27,486 bases of DNA from a virus (IMGVR_UViG_2909282993_000005); one strand, 5' to 3'. Counted from the stretch's first letter, positions 11,445 through 22,731 are shown. The notes: generated by a model from the letters alone, not told the origin. Numbers and translations are program-made.

Positions 11445-12164
11445 AGCCTGCTTCTCCTTGCCTTTCGGCACGTAAGAGGCTAACCTAGATTTGCCGTTCA
11501 TAGATTGAGCCTCAGATTAATGTTAAGCGTCTTGCAGGACGCGTAATGTTAACTGGGGCTTTTCTCTATCTGCCTTTGGTGTTCATGCCTGAGGCAGATA
11601 GCCTCAAGCACCCGCAGCAATTCTACTTAACTCCCGTCACCTCGCCAATATAAAATCAATCAGAAAGGCGATCCATAAGAACAACAGCAAGACAATAAAT
11701 TGCCATTACAGCCGCAATAGCTAGCGCACATTTGAGAACCAGCACGACAACCTCCTGTATTGGACGTACACCAGTTCTGATAAATATGAGGCTGTCTCAT
11801 CATTGATTCAATATAACTATTGGGTATAGTTTCTGTGATTTTGTTCTGTAGAAATGGAACACAACAACCAGTCACCACCAGCACTTCTTTAAATACGCCA
11901 AGTCCGACGCAAGCTAACCTTCTAGTCCGCTTTGAGCGAGGAGCGGACCAAACCCGGCCAACTGACTCTTAAAGGGGCCGCAGGAATTTTTCGTCTGAAC
12001 TTTCGAAGCTCCTCTCCCTGAAGACAGAAAACTTCTGTGTGCTGTGGGAATATTGAATCTTTGCATTAGATATAAATAATTTTATCCCGCCTGAAGTTTA
12101 CATTATTTTATTTATCTGTTTTTCTAAATCAGACTGCACTCCTTACTTAAATCAGGAGCCAGTC

Positions 12165-13364
12165 ATGCCATTTGTTATTTATGTGTTTACTATCAGTGCC
12201 TTTGCGCTCGGACTCGCGGAATTTGTCCCCATTGGGCTGACAGACGTTATGGCTCAGGGGTTGTGTGTGGGTGTGGAGCAGACCGGGGCAGCGGTTACAA
12301 CCTATGCACTGGGGGCAACGTTCGCGGCACCCGTACTGTCTGCGCTGACAGCAAGCTGGAGCCGGAAAAATGTAATGCTTACAACTGCCGTTGTGTTTAC
12401 TGCCGGTAGTCTGGCGGCCGCGTTTGCAGCCACATTACCTCAGCTCCTGTTAGCGCGGTTCATTGCTGGTCTGGGACACGGCCTGTTTCTGGCTGCGGCA
12501 TCCAGTACCGCAGCTCGTCTTGCTGGACCGGGTAAAGCAGGCAGAGCGGTGGCTGTGGTATTTGGTGGCTTTACTCTGGCGATGGCAATCGGCGTACCGC
12601 TGAGTACATGGTTGGGGGGGGTGGTCTCATGGCGTCCAGTTCTCGGCGCTATTGCCGCTTTTGGCGCGTTCGGATTCCTTGGACTGTTGTTCGGTATGAA
12701 AGATCCCGTACGCAGCGTGCCCGGTGAACATAGTGACTCAGCAATGCAGAATATCGGCATGCTGTTTAACCGTAAGTTGCTGGCCGGCGCGCTGGTTACG
12801 GTGCTGGCGTATGCAGGCTCGTTTACGGCTTACACCTTTATCGCACCTATTCTGACGCAGGTGACAGGGGTTACCGGAGCAAAGGTGAGTCTGTTTATGC
12901 TGGTTTACGGTATTACAGCTGCGGTAGGTAATATTCTTGGTGGGAAACTTACCGACAGCATGGGGGTTAATCGTGCCAATATACTCATCATTAGCGGCAT
13001 TGTTGTTGTCGTGCTTGGTATGTGGCTGCTGTCATCCTCACCGGTGAGCATGGGCATTCTGGTTGCGCTGCTGGGTATGGTGACATTTGCCGCAGTGCCG
13101 GCACTGCAGGCCCGTCTGATTGGTGTCGCTGAGCAACATGCTCCTCATGCGCATGGTGTTGCTGCCGGCCTGAATATTGCGGGCTTCAACTCAGGTATAG
13201 CGCTGGGATCAGTACTGGGCAGCATTACTATAAGCCACGCCGGTATCGTGTATACCGGTATCAGCGGTGCGATTGTTTCTCTGCTCGGCCTGCTGTTGCT
13301 GCTTGCACAAATCCGTCGCAGCCACAGTCGTAAATTTCAACAGGTTAAAATCGTAGGCCAGTAA
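12165..13364 (+). CDS. MFS transporter (12-TM, DHA1-like efflux/sugar-type family); GC-rich gene
   Basis: 399-aa highly hydrophobic ORF with MFS loop motifs; AGGAG RBS. Nucleotide composition is visibly more GC-rich than the flanking phage DNA. Confidence 0.8.
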   Translation: MPFVIYVFTISAFALGLAEFVPIGLTDVMAQGLCVGVEQTGAAVTTYALGATFAAPVLSALTASWSRKNVMLTTAVVFTAGSLAAAFAATLPQLLLARFIAGLGHGLFLAAASSTAARLAGPGKAGRAVAVVFGGFTLAMAIGVPLSTWLGGVVSWRPVLGAIAAFGAFGFLGLLFGMKDPVRSVPGEHSDSAMQNIGMLFNRKLLAGALVTVLAYAGSFTAYTFIAPILTQVTGVTGAKVSLFMLVYGITAAVGNILGGKLTDSMGVNRANILIISGIVVVVLGMWLLSSSPVSMGILVALLGMVTFAAVPALQARLIGVAEQHAPHAHGVAAGLNIAGFNSGIALGSVLGSITISHAGIVYTGISGAIVSLLGLLLLLAQIRRSHSRKFQQVKIVGQ

Positions 13365-13375
13365 AGGGAGGTTAT

Positions 13376-14068
13376 ATGCTTACCCGTGAAAATATGCTTA
13401 ATGGCACATTTGTCAGGGTGCATGAAGCGCTGCTCCCGGCGAATATGCTCTGGGACGCTGAAAAAATACGCGCATCAATGAACTCTACTCTGGAGGAGCG
13501 CCCGACGGGTGCTCCTTTCTGGATATTTGCCTACGGGTCATTGATGTGGAATCCCGTGCTGGCAATTGAAGAAATGCAACGGGCCCGTCTGAAAGGATGG
13601 CAGCGCAGTTTCTGCATTCGTTTGATATCCGGACGAGCGACTCCTGATGTCCCCGGCAGGATGTTATCGCTCGACGAAGGTGGAATTACCGAAGGTATTG
13701 CGTTCAGACTGCCGGAATCGACTCTTATTAATGAGCTGGAAATTGTCTGGACGCGCGAGATGATAACCGGTCTTTACCGTCCGGTCTGGGCAGACGTTTC
13801 GCTAGGAAACGGTGAGGAAATTCAGGCGCTGGCTTTCGTATCAGACAGACTGCATCCGCATTATGAACAGGACAATCTTACAGCGACCGTAGCGTTGAGC
13901 ATCGCATCTGCCCGTGGAGACATTGGCACGAATGCAGATTATGTATGGAAACTGCAGGCCACTCTGGGTGCGTTGGGAATACGGGATGATTACGTGAGTG
14001 AACTGGCCCTTGCTCTGCATGAGGCTCCCTGTAACGATAAACTTCATCAGCGAGGCGCTTCACTATGA
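13376..14068 (+). CDS. ChaC-family gamma-glutamylcyclotransferase-like protein
   Basis: 230-aa product with FAYGSLMWNP and GRMLSLDEGG...WTREMITG motifs matching the ChaC/GGCT fold signature (YGSL catalytic region). Confidence 0.8.
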   Translation: MLTRENMLNGTFVRVHEALLPANMLWDAEKIRASMNSTLEERPTGAPFWIFAYGSLMWNPVLAIEEMQRARLKGWQRSFCIRLISGRATPDVPGRMLSLDEGGITEGIAFRLPESTLINELEIVWTREMITGLYRPVWADVSLGNGEEIQALAFVSDRLHPHYEQDNLTATVALSIASARGDIGTNADYVWKLQATLGALGIRDDYVSELALALHEAPCNDKLHQRGASL

Positions 14069-14946
14069 GCCATCTGAGCCATCTGCGAACGTTTCTTGAG
14101 GCCTATCGCTCTGGCTCCTTTTCAAAGGCGGCAGAACTACTGGGCATCACTCAGCCCGCGGCGTCACAGCATATCCAGTCTCTTGAGACTCTGGTTGGTA
14201 AGCGTCTGTTTATCAGGCAGGCCAGAGGCGTGACGGCAACCGAAGCTGCGGATGAGCTTGCCCGCTCAGTTTCACCCTTCATTGATGGTCTGGAAGAAAA
14301 GCTGTCCTCTTTCCGGTCAGGCTCTGTACACGGGGGAACAATTAATCTGGCAGGACCGCCAGATTTTATTCATTCCCGGCTTGGGACAGTAATGGCTCCA
14401 CTAATGAAGGAGGGGTATCGCCTACGCTTTCATACCGGCAATAAGCAACGTATTTATTCCCTTTTGCATGACGGGAGCGCCGATCTCGCTGTTACCGCAT
14501 CTATGCCTGATGACCGTCTGTACGGCTATGCACATCTACTGACTGAACGCATGCTCCTTGTTCATGCTCCCGCCATGTCAGAGATCATCGGATCAGAACC
14601 TGGTGCTGAAACGCTTGCCTCATTACCGCTGATTGCTTATGACGAAGAGTTGCCACTGATTAGAGCGCTCTGGGCCTCCATGTTTCAGAGAGCCCCTGAG
14701 ATGCAGGCTACATTCACCATTCCGGATTTACGTATTATCCGCGACTTGGTCTGTGACGGCCACGGGTGGACAGTGCTGCCGGATTATCACTGTGACAATG
14801 ACCTGAAAAGTGGTCGCCTGATTTCAGTGACACCTGCAGACCTCGCTCCGACTAATCATCTTTATCTGGTCTGGAACAAAAGGACGGCTAATAACAGCCG
14901 AACCGCCTATGTTCGGGATTACATTCTTAAAACGTTTCCGCGTTGA
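14065..14946 (+). CDS. LysR-family transcriptional regulator
   Basis: 293-aa product with an N-terminal wHTH typical of LysR (LRTFLEAYRSGSFSKAAELLGITQPAASQHIQSLE) and a C-terminal substrate-binding domain. 4-bp overlap with the ChaC-like gene. Confidence 0.85.
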   Translation: MSHLSHLRTFLEAYRSGSFSKAAELLGITQPAASQHIQSLETLVGKRLFIRQARGVTATEAADELARSVSPFIDGLEEKLSSFRSGSVHGGTINLAGPPDFIHSRLGTVMAPLMKEGYRLRFHTGNKQRIYSLLHDGSADLAVTASMPDDRLYGYAHLLTERMLLVHAPAMSEIIGSEPGAETLASLPLIAYDEELPLIRALWASMFQRAPEMQATFTIPDLRIIRDLVCDGHGWTVLPDYHCDNDLKSGRLISVTPADLAPTNHLYLVWNKRTANNSRTAYVRDYILKTFPR

Positions 14947-14990
14947 TGTTTGAAACGGATGATTGGCGATGTGTATCATAAGTTACGTAT

Positions 14991-15020
14991 GTCCGCTTCT
15001 GGCACAAAGCAGACGCCCAC
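14991..15020. repeat. 30-bp imperfect direct repeat, copy A (gtccgcttctggcacaaagcagacgcccac)
   Basis: Matches copy B at 18664..18693 in 24/30 positions, with a 14-bp core GGCACAAAGCrGAC. Lies between the LysR stop and the convergent membrane-protein gene. Confidence 0.5.
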
Positions 15021-15076
15021 TCTCACGCGAATGCTTTGCCCTTGACTTGCCAACAACCGTATCGCTTGCTCCGCAA

Positions 15077-16369
15077 CTATGGTTTTTTATTAGAACCTTC
15101 GCCACTAAATAAATTATAATAAATTGATTTTATTAGATATCTGTCAGAATCTATATGGTCAGCACGAGTAGCATGCTCTAATGTTTCAAATGCTAGGGTT
15201 TGTGCGGCTTCAGCAAAAATTCCAGGCCAACCCTTACTCAGCATCGACAGTCCTTTAAGTACCCTTATCTGAATTTCCCTCATACTGGCACCATCGCGCG
15301 CAACAGGTGAGAAAAAGTCTTCAAGTAGATCGTTATTCTGAAGTGGTGCAACATGTACAGAAGGATATTTCACTTCTATTTCATCAGATTTATTCTGCGC
15401 GTAAGCGGAAAGTATACGTACACCTCTGCCAATGACATCAATGGCGGTTCCAGGATCGTTCACTGCGGGGGAAAGGGCTCGGCAGGCTATTTCGGCCATG
15501 ACGCTAAGACAAAATCGGGGGTCCTGAGCAAATGAACGTACATCCGAGACAATAATCGTCTCAAGTAAATCGGTGCTGATTGATGACTCCTGGCCCTGAC
15601 TCAGGTACAAAACTGGCGTGGACGGATGTATGAAACTGCCCGGCTGCGCCACGAGGTATACATGACGGGGATCATTGGTCAGCAGCTTGCTGAGTTTCAC
15701 CATATCAACATATTCAACATAGCCAATCTTTTTCGGATAAACTGCAACCGTTCCTTTCGGCTGTTCATTGTTCTCAAGCCATGGATATCCGCCGAGACAG
15801 GGATTTCTTGCTCTCGCAATAAATGTTTCGATGGCCGCCTGTTCTACTTTTGCCGTTGTCTCACCAACCCTCCCCAGAGAGGTCAAATGCTGTATCCAGC
15901 GAAGCAATGTGATGAGGATTAAGGCAATGACAACCAGTGTTACAATGAATAAAATGACTCTCCCCCTTTCTCCATAAGCTCCCATATTGAGGGCAATAAT
16001 CCCTACCAGACTGAAGAGAAAAGAACCGATGAAGGTGGCCAGTACATTTTGTGTGGTGACGTCTTCAACAACTAAACGAGTAGCTCTGGGAGTCACATTA
16101 GTAGTGGCTGAACCGTAGGCTGTGACCATGATGCTCAGCGAAAATGTGGTCACTGCCAGCATACTCGATGCCAGTATGTTCAGAATGTTATCGACTGCTT
16201 CCGCACCAACCTTCACGGAAACCGACTCAGGTATCATTGATTTAAAAAGAATTGATAAAAGGGCCGTTATTATTGCGACAATTGCGAATAACGTTGCCCT
16301 GAACCATAGTTTTTTAAATGTCTGCTTCAGCATCCATTTCCAGCGTGAAATCATTCTGCATTCCCTCAT
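15077..16369 (-). CDS. Membrane protein with N-terminal multi-TM region and C-terminal soluble domain (tentatively DUF2254-like); exact start uncertain (alternative Met codons at residues 6 and 13)
   Basis: 430-aa ORF with four predicted hydrophobic helices in the first ~160 residues and a long hydrophilic C-terminus. Family name is tentative recall. Confidence 0.55.
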   Translation of the reverse strand: MRECRMISRWKWMLKQTFKKLWFRATLFAIVAIITALLSILFKSMIPESVSVKVGAEAVDNILNILASSMLAVTTFSLSIMVTAYGSATTNVTPRATRLVVEDVTTQNVLATFIGSFLFSLVGIIALNMGAYGERGRVILFIVTLVVIALILITLLRWIQHLTSLGRVGETTAKVEQAAIETFIARARNPCLGGYPWLENNEQPKGTVAVYPKKIGYVEYVDMVKLSKLLTNDPRHVYLVAQPGSFIHPSTPVLYLSQGQESSISTDLLETIIVSDVRSFAQDPRFCLSVMAEIACRALSPAVNDPGTAIDVIGRGVRILSAYAQNKSDEIEVKYPSVHVAPLQNNDLLEDFFSPVARDGASMREIQIRVLKGLSMLSKGWPGIFAEAAQTLAFETLEHATRADHIDSDRYLIKSIYYNLFSGEGSNKKP

Positions 16370-16417
16370 ATTGCAGCCGGGATAAATAAATGCCGCCTCT
16401 GTGGCGGCATGTTGCTG

Positions 16418-18421
16418 TTAACGAACCAGATGCAGGAAGTGCAGGTGTTTTTCGTACTGGTCCAGTATGTCATTAATCAGCTGTTCCTGATTCCAGCCCA
16501 TTACATCATAATTTTGGCCGCCCTCTTTGAGATAGACTTCAGCGCGATAATATCGATGTTGTTCACTCTGCTGCTCATCATTATCCAGCGCAGCGAGCGC
16601 GAAGGTCGGTGAGTTATACCCGCGAAGCCTCACTTCATATATATAATTCAGCTCGTTGCCCAAATCGACTTCAAGGCGAATACGATCCTCGGCGGCGTCA
16701 CTGATGTGGCTTATCGTTCCCTGCTTGTTAAGTTCCTCCTGAACCAGCGTCATGGCGGGTTGGATAATGTCGTCCATAAAACGTTTCACAAGAGAGCGCT
16801 TCGGCAAATACGCGATATTGCGTAACCTTCTCTGCCAGGGAATTGGGTTACGTGCAGCCGTAGGAGCAATAGTCGCCATGCTAAGGCTTTCACGCTTGGT
16901 CAAATCCCGACGCAGGGCTTTTAACAGTCCGTATATGGATATTAATAAGATAACTGAGAAGGGCAATGCACTCGCTATCGTTACGGTTTGCAACGCACTC
17001 AGCCCCCCTGCGATCAGCAGGGCAATAGCAACAACGCCCATGAGCGATGCCCAGAAAATTCGCTGCCAGACGGGCGTGTTTGCCACCCCACCTGATGCCA
17101 GAGTATCCACAACCATTGCCCCCGAATCAGCAGACGTTACAAAGAAGACGATGACCATCGCCATTGCAATGAATGACAGCACGGAAGAGAACGGGAAATG
17201 CTCCAGGAAATTAAACAGGGCAAGCGCAACATCCTGCTGAACGGTATTGGCGAGGTCAGTGGCGCCCTGGTTCATGATGAGATAGATGGCGCTGTTTCCA
17301 AACACCGTCATCCACATGAGCGTAAAGCCGGCGGGAACAAACAACACGCCAGTCACGAACTCACGAATTGTCCTGCCGCGGGAAACGCGTGCAATGAACA
17401 TACCTACAAACGGCGACCATGAAAGCCACCATCCCCAGTATAATAATGTCCAGCCCCCCAGCCAGTTGCTCGACTTGGGTTCATACGCGTAAAGGTTGAA
17501 CGTTTTACTCACCAGTTCCGACAGATAACCACCCGTATTTTCCACAAATGACTTCAGCAGAAGCACAGTGGGACCCAGGCACAAGACCAGCGCCAGGAGC
17601 AACACCGCCAGGCCCAGATTAAGCTCAGACAGGATGCGTATTCCCTTGTCCAGGCCGGACACCACCGAAATCGTCGCTAACCCCGTGATGACCACGATCA
17701 AAATGACCTGTACCGTTTCATTGATGGGCACGCCGAAAAGATGGTTCAAACCGGCATTCACCTGCAATACACCGTAACCCAGTGATGTTGCAACGCCAAA
17801 GACAGTGCCTATCACGGCGAAGATATCAACCGCGTGGCCTATAGGCCCGTAAATGCGATCGCCGATAATGGGATAGAGCGCAGAACGCAGCGTTAAAGGC
17901 AGACCGTGACGGTAACTGAAAAAGGCCAGAATCAGCGCCACGATGGCATAAATTGCCCATGCGTGCAGACCCCAGTGGAAGAACGTCAGGCGCATGGCTT
18001 CCTTCGCTGCCGCAACGGTCTCTGGAGTGCCGACAGGTGGCGAAAGATAATGCATCACAGGTTCGGCAACGCCAAAGAACATCAGGCCGATCCCCATCCC
18101 TGCCGAAAAAAGCATCGCGAACCAGGAGTGGTAGCTGAAATCAGGCTGCGCATGGTCTGGGCCCAGCTTTATATCACCGTAACGTGAGAGTCCAAGGAAC
18201 GTGACGCTCAGTAAAATCAGGGCCACAGCAAGTATGTAGAACCAGCTGGCATTCGTGAAGATTTGTTGCTGAAGTAGTTTAAAATTTTTGTCGGCGACAT
18301 CCGGGAATACGGCGGCAAAGGCGACAAGAAGGAAAATTAGCAAAGCAGATGTAAAGAATACCGCTTTGTTAATCTGGCTTGTAGACTTCTTTGGGGTTGT
18401 ATCATTTTCACTCATAATCAT
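16418..18421 (-). CDS. BCCT-family transporter (BetT-like choline/betaine/carnitine transporter)
   Basis: 667-aa product with BCCT signature regions (WTLLYWGWWLSWSPFVGMFIARVSRGRTIREF) and the C-terminal DILDQYEKHLHFLHL tail typical of BetT. Confidence 0.85.
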   Translation of the reverse strand: MIMSENDTTPKKSTSQINKAVFFTSALLIFLLVAFAAVFPDVADKNFKLLQQQIFTNASWFYILAVALILLSVTFLGLSRYGDIKLGPDHAQPDFSYHSWFAMLFSAGMGIGLMFFGVAEPVMHYLSPPVGTPETVAAAKEAMRLTFFHWGLHAWAIYAIVALILAFFSYRHGLPLTLRSALYPIIGDRIYGPIGHAVDIFAVIGTVFGVATSLGYGVLQVNAGLNHLFGVPINETVQVILIVVITGLATISVVSGLDKGIRILSELNLGLAVLLLALVLCLGPTVLLLKSFVENTGGYLSELVSKTFNLYAYEPKSSNWLGGWTLLYWGWWLSWSPFVGMFIARVSRGRTIREFVTGVLFVPAGFTLMWMTVFGNSAIYLIMNQGATDLANTVQQDVALALFNFLEHFPFSSVLSFIAMAMVIVFFVTSADSGAMVVDTLASGGVANTPVWQRIFWASLMGVVAIALLIAGGLSALQTVTIASALPFSVILLISIYGLLKALRRDLTKRESLSMATIAPTAARNPIPWQRRLRNIAYLPKRSLVKRFMDDIIQPAMTLVQEELNKQGTISHISDAAEDRIRLEVDLGNELNYIYEVRLRGYNSPTFALAALDNDEQQSEQHRYYRAEVYLKEGGQNYDVMGWNQEQLINDILDQYEKHLHFLHLVR

Positions 18422-18755: not shown

Positions 18756-19178
18756 TCACTTCAATAAATACCGAACATCCCCCTGATAAAACGACAATAT
18801 GCGCTGCATAACTTCGCTCTTCCGGCACTCGCGACAGATTATGTTTAGGCGACTGTCGTAGCGACGTATTTCTCCGTCAGGTAATGACCAGATAAGGTCC
18901 GGATCAACCACAACCGGTTTCTTCAGCTTTGCCCTCGATAATTTTTTGCGGGCATTTTGCCAGTCTTTACGAGCCTGTTCAGACGGGAATAACCCGTAGC
19001 CAGAATTGTATACATCGCCACTGGCAACCAGCTCTCTGGCCAGAACGCTCATCAGATATCTTGTTGCCCCAGTTTTAGCTTCCAGTTGTCGTAACGTCTC
19101 GCGCCCACTCTGGCGTACGAGTTCAAGAACCTGCCCTTTAATTTTTTCCCGCTCTTCTTGTGTAAAAACTTTTGCCAC
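18756..19178 (-). CDS. Hypothetical phage protein downstream of the replication initiator (P-position of lambda, but too short to be a helicase loader)
   Basis: 140-aa ORF with a strong AGGAGG RBS. C-terminal CRECRK motif; no recognisable domain. Confidence 0.5.
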   Translation of the reverse strand: MAKVFTQEEREKIKGQVLELVRQSGRETLRQLEAKTGATRYLMSVLARELVASGDVYNSGYGLFPSEQARKDWQNARKKLSRAKLKKPVVVDPDLIWSLPDGEIRRYDSRLNIICRECRKSEVMQRILSFYQGDVRYLLK

Positions 19179-19218
19179 AAGCCCTCCTGAAAATTACCTC
19201 ATGACCAGAAATTAACAC

Positions 19219-20289
19219 TTACCCCCTGAAGCCCGGCGGAATTTCGTTATCCGGTTCAGAAATATGATTCACACAACGCTGGTTGTTCGTGCCGCTTACC
19301 GGGAGCAACCAGGGGTTCTCAAAATTCCGGTCCGGTCCAAAAAACGTCGTCGCTCGCTGAACAAATTCCGTTCCCGTTTTCCCGGTAGCCGCCAAGTATC
19401 TTGCGTAACGCCTCACGCCATCCAGCATGGCCTCTGGTGGCACCCCCTCGCGTAATCTGGCCTTCCAGGCACTGAAAGCGGATTTCTTCGGGTTTGCCCC
19501 AGCACGCAACGGGTACTCCCGCCAGACCTGTTCGAACACATCCGGATAATCCACTCGTCCCACAGACTGCCCGGTGTTTTCCGGGACTACCCGATCGGCT
19601 TCCCGCTGAATGGCGGAATCGGCTTCAGGCTGCTGCAGTTGGTGTGATTGCTCCGCCCTTGCGGTCATCACCTGCTGCACAGCGCCCGAATCGGCTTTCA
19701 GCGCATACGCTGAATCGGCTTCCGGTGTCGTGCCTGCTGGCTGACCAAGATTGACGGTCTGAACATCCCCTGCCTGGTTCGTGGCGTTTTTTACGCCATG
19801 GACCATAGTGTTTTGATCTTCTTGATCTGTATCTTTATCTGTATCTTTATCTGTCGTGACTCGTCGTGACATGTGCGTGACATTTCGTGACGCGCCGTGA
19901 CAATCGCCATTTTGTTCCCGCTTTCTTTCCCTCTCTCGCTGCGCCCTCTTGCGCTCTGCAGGAGATTTTGCGGTTTGCGAAATATTGCCGTTGTCCTCTT
20001 TAAGCACCTGGCGTTTTTCCCATCCAGTGATTAAATCACCATCAAGTACCCGCCCCTGCATCGTCTGCAAAATTGAATCAATTACCTCTTCTGTCACGTC
20101 GAGCGCACTTGCCAAATCTTCTGTCGTGACATCAATGTGACCTCGCGTGACATTTCGTGACGCGCTCACCAGGAGGTGGATATACACTGCCATCACTGTT
20201 GCAATTGGCTGCCCTGACACCCTGGCAATTGTTCGCCACTTAGGGTCATTTGGCATGTCATGCCATAATCTGAGCCAGGCGTTAGCCAT
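19219..20289 (-). CDS. Putative replication initiation protein (lambda O-like organisation: iteron arrays inside the coding sequence)
   Basis: 356-aa product from the ATG at 20289 (RBS AGAGGTGA); the ORF track starts two codons earlier at GTG. Sits at the O position after the cro/cII-like genes. Contains two arrays of CGTGAC repeats at 10-11-bp spacing, mirrored in the protein as repeated SRNVT(R/H)..VTT motifs. Confidence 0.55.
   Translation of the reverse strand: MANAWLRLWHDMPNDPKWRTIARVSGQPIATVMAVYIHLLVSASRNVTRGHIDVTTEDLASALDVTEEVIDSILQTMQGRVLDGDLITGWEKRQVLKEDNGNISQTAKSPAERKRAQRERERKREQNGDCHGASRNVTHMSRRVTTDKDTDKDTDQEDQNTMVHGVKNATNQAGDVQTVNLGQPAGTTPEADSAYALKADSGAVQQVMTARAEQSHQLQQPEADSAIQREADRVVPENTGQSVGRVDYPDVFEQVWREYPLRAGANPKKSAFSAWKARLREGVPPEAMLDGVRRYARYLAATGKTGTEFVQRATTFFGPDRNFENPWLLPVSGTNNQRCVNHISEPDNEIPPGFRG
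19855..19901. repeat. Iteron array 1: five CGTGAC motifs spaced 10-11 bp (starts 19855, 19865, 19876, 19886, 19896), preceded by two GATC sites and a tandem 12-bp repeat tatctttatctg
   Basis: Read directly from the sequence. Helical-turn periodicity and location inside the rep ORF resemble lambdoid ori organisation. Confidence 0.6.
20093..20161. repeat. Iteron array 2: CGTGAC/TGTGAC motifs at 20125, 20136, 20146, 20156 plus an inverted copy GTCACG at 20093
   Basis: Read directly; same motif and spacing as array 1, about 225 bp away within the same ORF. Confidence 0.55.
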
Positions 20290-20360
20290 ACTCACCTCTT
20301 TTGATACCGAATCTTTTTACTCACAAATTGCCGGAAGTGATCCGGTATGAATATTGCGAG

Positions 20361-21151: not shown

Positions 21152-21571
21152 ATGGACAAATATGAATTTAGACGACAGCAACTCATCAAAATTCGTGATG
21201 AGAAATGCGATGGTAAAGCGGTTAACGTGGCCAGAAAGATCGGGCGCGAGCCTTCTTATGTATCAAGAATGTTGTACCCAGAGGGGAAAAAGGGAAAAAA
21301 ACGGATCGCTGATGATATGGTGGAGATTATCGAAGAGTCCTTTGGGTTACCCCGGGGATGGATGGATGGTATCGTTTCATCATCAACGAACACAGCCTCC
21401 AGTTATGAAACAAGGGTTCTAACGCCACGACAACGTATTTTTTTAGATCTCTTAGACGAACTGCCAGAAAGTGAAGCGGATAACTTATTAAAAACTCTTG
21501 AAGAGAAAAAACAGTATTACAATATGATCTACGAAGAAATCCGTAAAAAGAAAGCACAAAACGCATCATAG
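21152..21571 (+). CDS. CI/DicA/RacR-position prophage repressor-like protein
   Basis: 139-aa ORF divergent from the cro-like gene with a putative HTH (KAVNVARKIGREPSYVSRMLY). C-terminal FLDLLDELPESEADNLL resembles the DicA C-terminus from recall. No obvious RBS, so possibly a leaderless transcript. Confidence 0.5.
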   Translation: MDKYEFRRQQLIKIRDEKCDGKAVNVARKIGREPSYVSRMLYPEGKKGKKRIADDMVEIIEESFGLPRGWMDGIVSSSTNTASSYETRVLTPRQRIFLDLLDELPESEADNLLKTLEEKKQYYNMIYEEIRKKKAQNAS

Positions 21572-22678: not shown

Positions 22679-22731
22679 TTTCTGGTGACGTTTGGCGGTA
22701 TCAGTTTTACTCCGTGACTGCTCTGCCGCCC
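22679..22731 (+). ncRNA. dicF: DicF small RNA (cell-division inhibitor sRNA targeting ftsZ mRNA)
   Basis: 53-nt sequence TTTCTGGTGACGTTTGGCGGTATCAGTTTTACTCCGTGACTGCTCTGCCGCCC matches DicF from recall, followed by a T-run (22732-22736) and preceded by a structured ~300-nt leader. Confidence 0.8.

Follow-up and report, generated by a model that had tools for sequence, protein, structure and literature searches.

Why should the gene of a phage replication initiator carry, within its own coding sequence, two arrays of one short repeat with copies set a helical turn apart? The question is raised by a 27,486-nucleotide stretch of viral DNA, IMGVR_UViG_2909282993_000005 (the whole of which is called the window here), where positions 19219-20289 of the minus strand encode, from an ATG, a 356-residue initiator described as a 'phage replisome organizer' (WP_001262352-type); the mechanically called open reading frame begins at a GTG at 20295. 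The answer that we consider probable is that 19775-20161 forms an iteron-type replication origin of a DicB/Qin-type lambdoid prophage, situated inside the coding sequence of its own initiator, with the hexameric repeats as the predicted binding sites of that protein.

Two phased hexamer arrays in the initiator gene

Exact copies of CGTGAC were searched for on both strands of the window, complemented by inspection of the sequence, and expectations were derived from shuffles and the Poisson distribution. While the window holds 18 copies (9.9 expected), nine of them lie within 307 base pairs (bp), where 0.11 would be expected (P of at least nine = 6e-15). The array farther from the N-terminus (array 1, 19855-19901) consists of five phased GTCACG hexamers on the gene strand and codes for residues 130-147 of a disordered linker (DCHGASRNVTHMSRRVTT). 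On the plus strand its copies start at 19855, 19865, 19876, 19886 and 19896, in steps of 10, 11, 10 and 10 bp, and the exact search thereby bears out an earlier sequence-only reading of this DNA, which had described five copies one helical turn apart at this place. The N-terminus-proximal array (array 2, 20125-20161) has four phased GTCAC(G/A) hexamers on the gene strand and codes for a loop, residues 43-56 (ASRNVTRGHIDVT), between the helix at residues 29-45 and the helix-turn-helix. Its plus-strand copies start at 20125, 20146 and 20156, with a one-mismatch TGTGAC at 20136 (steps of 11, 10 and 10 bp). A single inverted hexamer (20093-20098, GTCACG on the plus strand) lies 27 bp from array 2 within codons D64-V65-T66. 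For 20093-20161 the same reading had counted four further copies and an inverted one; the inverted copy is indeed there, but the four amount to three perfect copies and the TGTGAC variant.

The arrays are separated by ~225 bp and stand in register at a distance of 270 bp, or precisely 90 codons, sharing TCTGTCGTGAC at 19850 and 20120 and GTGACATTTCGTGACGCGC at 19878 and 20148. Similar sets of at least three helically phased direct repeats, represented here by five and four copies in 10/11-bp steps, are found in ~40 related loci. Across homologs the hexamer flanks are unconserved except for a weak T/G preference at position -1 in the logo, leaving a core of 6 bp only. In the complete 46-kb genome of the viable phage Tritos, GTCACG clusters are confined to arrays 1 and 2, and no second hexamer cluster resembling SPP1 oriR or P4 crr was found in that genome or in the window.

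Conservation of the hexamers beyond protein coding

On the gene strand the hexamers fall into frames 2, 0, 1 and 0 in array 2 and 1, 2, 0, 2 and 0 in array 1, and are accordingly translated as S-R, V-T or x-H. A period of 10 bp cannot be a codon period. The recurrent SRNVT..VTT peptides, which the sequence-only reading had attributed to the repeats being forced into the protein, follow from this reading of one hexamer in different frames. Synonymous sites were compared in 23 homologs with 60-75% amino-acid identity between their N-terminal domains (N-domains) and with saturation at synonymous sites elsewhere. At conserved residues with the third codon position inside a hexamer, the mean fraction of the top codon is 0.95 as compared to 0.52 outside, and codon entropy is 0.19 bits as compared to 1.51 (Mann-Whitney p=1.4e-6). 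Within array 2, V47 and V54 are encoded by GTC, T48 by ACG and G50 by GGT in 23/23 homologs, H51 by CAC in 22/22, T55 by ACG and S44 by TCA in 22/23, and A43 by GCG in 21/23. In the inverted copy, GTG encodes V65 in 20/20 and either GAC or GAT encodes D64, which makes the site [CT]GTGAC wherever V65 is retained; a perfect inverted CGTGAC at gene nucleotide ~192 is present in 15 of the 25 loci that have the loop architecture of the window.

Array 1 behaves differently at the protein level. Its homologous counterparts have three to five copies and keep the hexamers and the 10/11-bp phase while the encoded peptide changes (CHGASRNVT, CHAESRNVT, GHDESRKVT, SRDVTATSRDVT), and its copy number shifts by 21 bp, that is by two iterons or seven codons, which keeps the frame. 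According to structural models, the arrays fall where coding constraint is lowest, array 1 in the disordered linker and array 2 in a loop of lower confidence. A protein-coding repeat devoid of DNA-level conservation in homologs had been named as the outcome that would speak against an origin; upon checking, DNA conservation was found to exceed what the protein requires. Taken together, the reading in three frames, the frozen synonymous sites, the varying array 1 peptide and the family-wide layout (see below) identify the repeats as DNA-level elements, and we show here, by comparison of homologs, that the hexamers are under purifying selection at the level of DNA.

The AT-rich tract and a predicted hairpin next to array 1

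An AT- and purine-rich tract, the putative DNA-unwinding element, adjoins array 1 at 19807-19854 (gene strand ACAGATAAAGATACAGATAAAGATACAGATCAAGAAGATCAAAACACT, coding for TDKDTDKDTDQEDQNT). It includes two GATC sites (19815-18 and 19824-27) and a 12-bp tandem repeat (19820-19855, three copies), both as previously described from the sequence. AT content reaches its maximum within the gene, 0.73, in the 48 nucleotides at 19805-19852, the gene as a whole having 0.46. A (GATAAA/GATACA)n tract follows the last array 1 iteron after a fixed gap of 3 bp in the window and in 16 relatives, 17 loci in all, the junction being iteron-NNA-GATAAAGAT, and the same tract also follows array 1 in relatives with the hexamer CGAACG. 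GC-rich hosts retain it, with an AT content of 0.6-0.8 in genes whose own AT content is 0.32-0.5. The encoded peptide is of low complexity (D/K/T/E) and lies in the region that AlphaFold2 models as disordered (residues 128-243). An AT-rich element thus stands directly beside the phased repeats, and its role in unwinding is predicted from sequence.

Directly past the tract, at 19775-19805, the plus strand contains a palindrome with a 13-bp stem (coding for MVHGVKNATN), which gives, in the direction of transcription, an order of iterons, AT tract and palindrome in the middle of the gene. The predicted DNA fold has -10.9 kcal/mol (z=-5.1), and the hairpin is stronger on the plus strand owing to two G-T pairs. 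Six loci with the same C-terminal module (C-module) of the initiator, two of them with unrelated N-terminal modules (N-modules), have a hairpin predicted at the corresponding position. Covariation was weak: in the count, 74% of cells were paired with one compensatory pair, and indels shift the register. The better pairing strand is antisense to the gene and has a weak T-run after the hairpin, and amino-acid changes are coupled across the six loci (GVKNA vs GEKIA). The hairpin could be an origin palindrome, a priming signal in single-stranded DNA or an antisense terminator.

Distribution of the arrays and classes of hexamers

Arrays at gene nucleotides ~129-165 and ~380-450 are shared by Pseudomonas phage phita81A, Aeromonas phage pAEv1818 and ~25 prophages of Gamma- and Betaproteobacteria, with array 2 at nucleotides 129-165 in ~28 loci. 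Hosts of loci with both arrays include Escherichia, Serratia, Rahnella, Pseudomonas, Bordetella, Acidovorax, Aquitalea, Chromobacterium, Castellaniella and Gilvimarinus, and GTCACG arrays are distributed over Enterobacterales, Pseudomonadales, Aeromonadales, Burkholderiales and Neisseriales. As this layout is spread across the gamma- and betaproteobacterial family, two arrays represent the ancestral state and no local duplication took place in this prophage. The description of an origin 'duplicated into two arrays' in the sequence-only reading is in this respect misleading.

Remoter relatives of the N-domain carry other hexamers in the same places, namely CGAACG (~12 loci) and GTAACG (5 loci), and the change always affects both arrays. 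When 50 loci were searched de novo, the array-2 zone contained a repeated 5-mer in 44 and none in the other 6, and in 40 of those 44 the same 5-mer recurred in the array-1 zone. Among close relatives, two loci (L024 and L027) have GTAACG where a third (L029) has GTCACG (aligned sites 160, 181, 224, 412, 422 and 451); this switch amounts to an A<->C exchange at six aligned sites over both arrays and is synonymous in one frame. In L024 (Pantoea, gene nucleotides 139-451) the direct copies read GTAACG and the inverted copies CGTGAC, as in the GTCACG class, and this mixed locus may be an intermediate of a specificity switch.

The arrays travel with the N-terminal winged-helix domain rather than with the C-module: initiators that combine the same C-module with another N-module (Stx phage 75/02, L137, and L142) have no GTCACG. 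The repeat therefore co-varies with the initiator encoded in cis, as in iteron systems, and three hexamer classes follow the lineages of the N-domain. In a search for class-separating residues, only the linker and a basic helix differed consistently outside the iteron-encoded loop, a result that is confounded by phylogeny.

Several natural variants were observed within the family. Prophages of Serratia (L046) and Pantoea (L054) encode N-domain relatives without hexamer arrays; these have a different C-terminal part (YVYYVATTDGDVVRVGISRNPWARCKDL), likened to GIY-YIG nucleases by eye alone, and another phased repeat (ACTACG/CTACG) downstream of the N-domain. An E. coli initiator of 302 residues (P0019) has a natural in-frame deletion relative to 19730-19890 of the window, lacks the end of array 1, the AT tract and the hairpin, and fuses 'HGAS' to 'PEADS'; to judge from this deletion, its prophage is presumably origin-dead and cryptic. 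A longer protein (P0003, 374 residues) has additional iterons in both arrays.

Domains of the initiator

Over its full length the initiator matches PHROG 3729 ('replication initiation protein'), and it gives weak PHROG matches to 'replisome organizer' entries. 'Phage replisome organizer' is also the annotation given by NCBI and by the annotators of Tritos, while the PGAP label in the records inspected is 'hypothetical protein'. The protein comprises a winged-helix domain (residues 1-93), a basic helix (110-126), the disordered linker (128-243), a C-terminal domain (245-332) and a DnaT-like tail of 22 residues. Whole-protein searches of Pfam (E<=0.01) and NCBIfam assigned no family. In a permissive domain-wise Pfam scan (E<=10) the N-domain matched only HTH_Crp_2 and PF09681 (Phage_rep_org_N), the latter with 16.6 bits against a gathering threshold of 23.3 (E=0.008) but end to end, with residues 5-123 aligned to profile positions 1-119 of 121. 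A relationship to PF09681 would thus be remote at best, although the N-domain does have a winged-helix fold like that of the DnaD N-terminal domain (DnaD-NTD). Sequence searches of the PDB with the protein and with an N-domain profile returned only the DnaT tail and noise.

The loop that carries array 2 takes insertions of 7 to ~25 residues in relatives. Between the arrays, 19912-19962 on the minus strand encodes the basic helix (AERKRAQRERERKREQ), which was delimited from models and a class-sorted alignment and differs in sequence between iteron classes; on the models it is a candidate for a DNA-contacting or oligomerization element. The C-modules are swapped among relatives, and in related initiators of E. 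coli prophages the same N-domain is linked to the Pfam DnaT-like ssDNA-binding (single-stranded DNA-binding) domain (PF17948). The tail of the window initiator resembles the C-terminal tail of DnaT (6aep, 2ru8 and 9zbt, E 0.003-0.07). With the DnaT model NF002770 it scores 19.2 bits against a cut-off of 201, far from an equivalog, and only residues 335-358 align (profile positions 156-179).

A second repeat family was noticed in the initiator gene at 19590-19725 (residues ~186-232). It reads (C/G)GAATCGGCTT(C/T)C on the plus strand, with four copies at about 19590, 19616, 19688 and 19712, and GAAGCCGATTC on the gene strand, where it encodes the peptide (E/K)ADS. It recurs in the initiator of Stx phage 75/02 (L137 2875-2984), which shares the C-module only, and could act either as a site in the DNA or, within the disordered linker, as a short linear peptide motif.

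Prophage setting

The neighborhood is that of a lambdoid immunity and early-right region, with a cI-like gene (21152-21571, plus strand) followed by Cro/YdaS-like, YdaT/CII-like, initiator and DUF977/Ren-like genes; the cro-like and YdaT/CII-like genes are on the minus strand. An identical locus in E. coli AR_452 belongs to the DicB/DicF prophage beside rspB/ynfA, in the Qin position. The DicF antisense small RNA was located at 22680-22731 (plus strand; Rfam RF00039, 76.7 bits), the only Rfam match found, and according to the identical annotated locus it is surrounded by ydfA/B/C, dicB and ydfD. This match and the surrounding genes confirm a prophage of the Qin/DicB type. The initiator gene has 98-99% identity to its counterparts in the isolated viable phages Tritos and Evi, whose arrays do not differ from those of the window. 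Among 5,426 complete E. coli genomes, 2,698 contain DNA that matches the gene, over at least 80% of its length in 1,646, and the cassette is present in hundreds of viral contigs.

In the window and in Tritos, the gene after the initiator is the DUF977/Ren-like gene, with no P-type loader gene in between, while relatives with the same C-module have a DnaC-like or lambda-P-like loader gene next to the initiator. Where 18756-19218 was compared to such relatives (L137, L139, L140 and L142), these carried a DnaC-like (IstB_IS21) loader, often together with DUF1627, before the DUF977/Ren-like gene. Judged by gene content, the window and Tritos have an 'initiator-only' replication module, and since both run straight into DUF977, they presumably rely on host DnaC. 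Between the replication module and hokD, the prophage also contains a block of non-phage cargo (~12100-18421; L001 4947-11197) with genes for an MFS transporter, a gamma-glutamylcyclotransferase, a LysR regulator, a DUF2254 protein and a BCCT/BetT-like transporter (16418-18421, minus strand). Tritos has another insert at this position.

Alternative explanations and proposed mechanism

Could the same observations be accounted for without an origin made of both arrays? It is possible, if somewhat doubtful, that array 1 and the AT tract alone constitute the origin and that array 2 with its inverted copy is regulatory, acting either in autorepression as a transcriptional roadblock or in copy control, where it would be handcuffed to array 1 or to a sister molecule. 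Such pairing of iteron sets for copy control ('handcuffing') occurs with incA and incC of the plasmids P1 and F. Array 1 is the only one that adjoins the AT tract, the conserved inverted copy accompanies array 2 only, and a protein bound to array 2, 130 nucleotides into the coding region, would meet RNA polymerase. In addition, unwinding and in vitro replication of lambda-type origins require just those iterons that are nearest the AT tract (PMC7466680). Array 2 is, however, conserved as strongly as array 1 and switches specificity along with it, and there is no notable promoter-like element near array 2. That a protein other than the initiator, be it a host factor or the YdaT/CII-like or Cro-like protein, binds the hexamers for transcription control appears improbable. 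The region does lie in the early right operon downstream of regulators, and binding to the hexamers is itself a prediction from the sequence, but a shared host factor is unlikely given that the same arrays occur across five host orders. The genes upstream of the initiator differ between loci, a YdaT-like gene is also found upstream of array-less initiators (L142), and no part of the gene except the N-domain, which itself contains one of the arrays, is found with them in every case.

The remaining alternative, in which the repeats arose secondarily, from a repeated peptide motif (SRNVT/VTT) or through slippage and duplication within low-complexity coding sequence, and have no function as DNA, is hardly credible to us. 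The 90-codon register, the like peptides with ASRNVT.. occurring twice, the low complexity of the linker and the variable copy number would all suit it. It fails on frame usage and on the synonymous-site data, as the hexamer is read in all three frames as different amino acids and synonymous positions are frozen inside hexamers while saturated outside. Moreover, amino acids of array 1 vary under constant hexamers and phase, in class switches it is the nucleotides that change in concert, synonymously in one frame, and no overlapping gene was apparent that would account for the frozen codons. Other causes of the conservation were also considered and rejected: a scan for internal promoters and terminators was no richer than in shuffles, with the sole promoter-like match (19877-19904, plus strand) being the iterons themselves, and an RNA family is not indicated, Rfam giving only DicF.

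Several points weigh against an origin that uses both arrays. About nine remote relatives of the N-domain have no detectable phased hexamer, so the arrangement is not universal. The covariation of hexamer and N-domain classes represents few independent events, the compared sequences being phylogenetically related, and concerted evolution of the repeats by gene conversion could contribute to the common motif of the arrays. The conservation and co-switching of array 2 suit a part of the origin or a control site alike, and the literature searched contained no report of binding or origin activity for this initiator family.

If 19775-20161 is nevertheless taken as an iteron-type origin, rightward early transcription from the immunity region would yield the initiator, and its DnaD-NTD-like winged helix would bind GTCAC(G/A) as monomers or oligomers. 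Because the direct repeats are 10-11 bp apart, we propose that bound proteins are aligned along one side of the helix and are able to oligomerize. This could result in two short filaments ~225 bp apart, one on array 2 (four direct copies and one inverted) and one on array 1 (five copies). Together with negative supercoiling, and possibly with bridging of the arrays, the array 1 complex would melt the abutting (GATAAA/GATACA)n tract. Recruitment of the host DnaB-DnaC complex by the C-terminal domain and the DnaT-like tail would then be expected, as phages of this type have no helicase-loader gene. More tentatively, and with considerable doubt, the arrays might be a functional pair, in which the filaments bridge the ~225 bp into a loop or pair two copies of the DNA and thereby license or throttle firing; coordinated hexamer switches (GTCACG <-> GTAACG <-> CGAACG) would then create replication specificity groups that do not cross-react among mosaic lambdoid phages. 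If true, this would make a compact and evolvable origin-initiator cassette, with site and reader on the same DNA.

The predicted minimal origin measures ~390 bp. The three natural specificity classes offer material for studying the recognition of a 6-bp site by a winged-helix initiator, and the module offers a natural system for DnaB recruitment by a phage without its own helicase loader. As an example of dual coding, in which constraints of binding sites shape a protein loop and a disordered linker, the locus also bears on annotation and on what are taken to be 'conserved peptide motifs'. In addition, the cassette could mark replication-competent Qin/DicB-type prophages as opposed to decayed ones such as that of P0019.

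Comparison with known replication systems

In its predicted mode of action the element resembles lambda ori/O, SPP1 oriL/G38P and the iteron replicons of plasmids. A close parallel in location is lambda, where the origin likewise lies in the initiator gene of the early-right operon, with repeats and then an AT tract between the DNA-binding and the helicase-recruiting domains. Lambda also has a palindrome beyond its AT tract, which the hairpin at 19775-19805 would match. Its iterons and AT-rich tract occupy the middle of gene O, and iteron number varies between phages, with six in Stx-phage variants (PMC7466680). The sequence-only reading had called the locus a lambdoid origin in an O-like gene. 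An iteron origin within the initiator gene is sustained by the DNA-level conservation and the co-variation with the N-domain, but homology to O is not, as the window initiator has no match to Phage_rep_O (lambda O / P22 gp18); from these searches we regard the two proteins as analogous and not homologous. Further differences are evident in the sites, since lambda has four iterons that are 19-bp imperfect palindromes, each of which binds a dimer of O, while the window has 6-bp direct repeats one turn apart, in the second array, which lies ~225 bp off within the coding region of the DNA-binding domain, and in the adjacent P-type loader gene, which the window prophage lacks.

A different likeness is seen with the replisome organizers of the PF09681 type, that is SPP1 G38P and its lactococcal and Lactobacillus counterparts, to which the window initiator is linked by its name, its sub-threshold but full-length PF09681 match, its weak PHROG matches and its DnaD-NTD-like fold. 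The window family is, however, proteobacterial and well below the curated Pfam threshold. In SPP1, oriL is located within gene 38. G38P binds oriL and a second site, oriR (PMC5615212). The SPP1 clusters are tens of kb apart, whereas the arrays in the window are 225 bp apart in the same gene with no other cluster in the whole phage genome, and the window module is without a dedicated helicase or loader. Plasmid replicons (P1, F, RK2, pPS10; RepA_N family) typically have iterons of 17-22 bp in intergenic DNA, as opposed to a unit of 6 bp in arrays that are both translated within the initiator. With regard to E. coli DnaT and to DnaD, the likeness is restricted to the tail, which resembles the C-terminal tail of DnaT, and to the generic fold of the N-domain, which resembles DnaD-NTD; the initiator is no equivalog of DnaT, and a role of the tail in helicase recruitment would be suggested by this likeness.

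Neither these repeats nor the two-part layout is described in the literature searched, although a 2006 review of phage replication modules by Weigel & Seitz, which was outside that search, may list the module. An iteron origin embedded in an initiator gene is in itself familiar; what differs here are the minimal 6-bp sites, the two translated arrays, the conserved hexameric AT tract and the three specificity classes.

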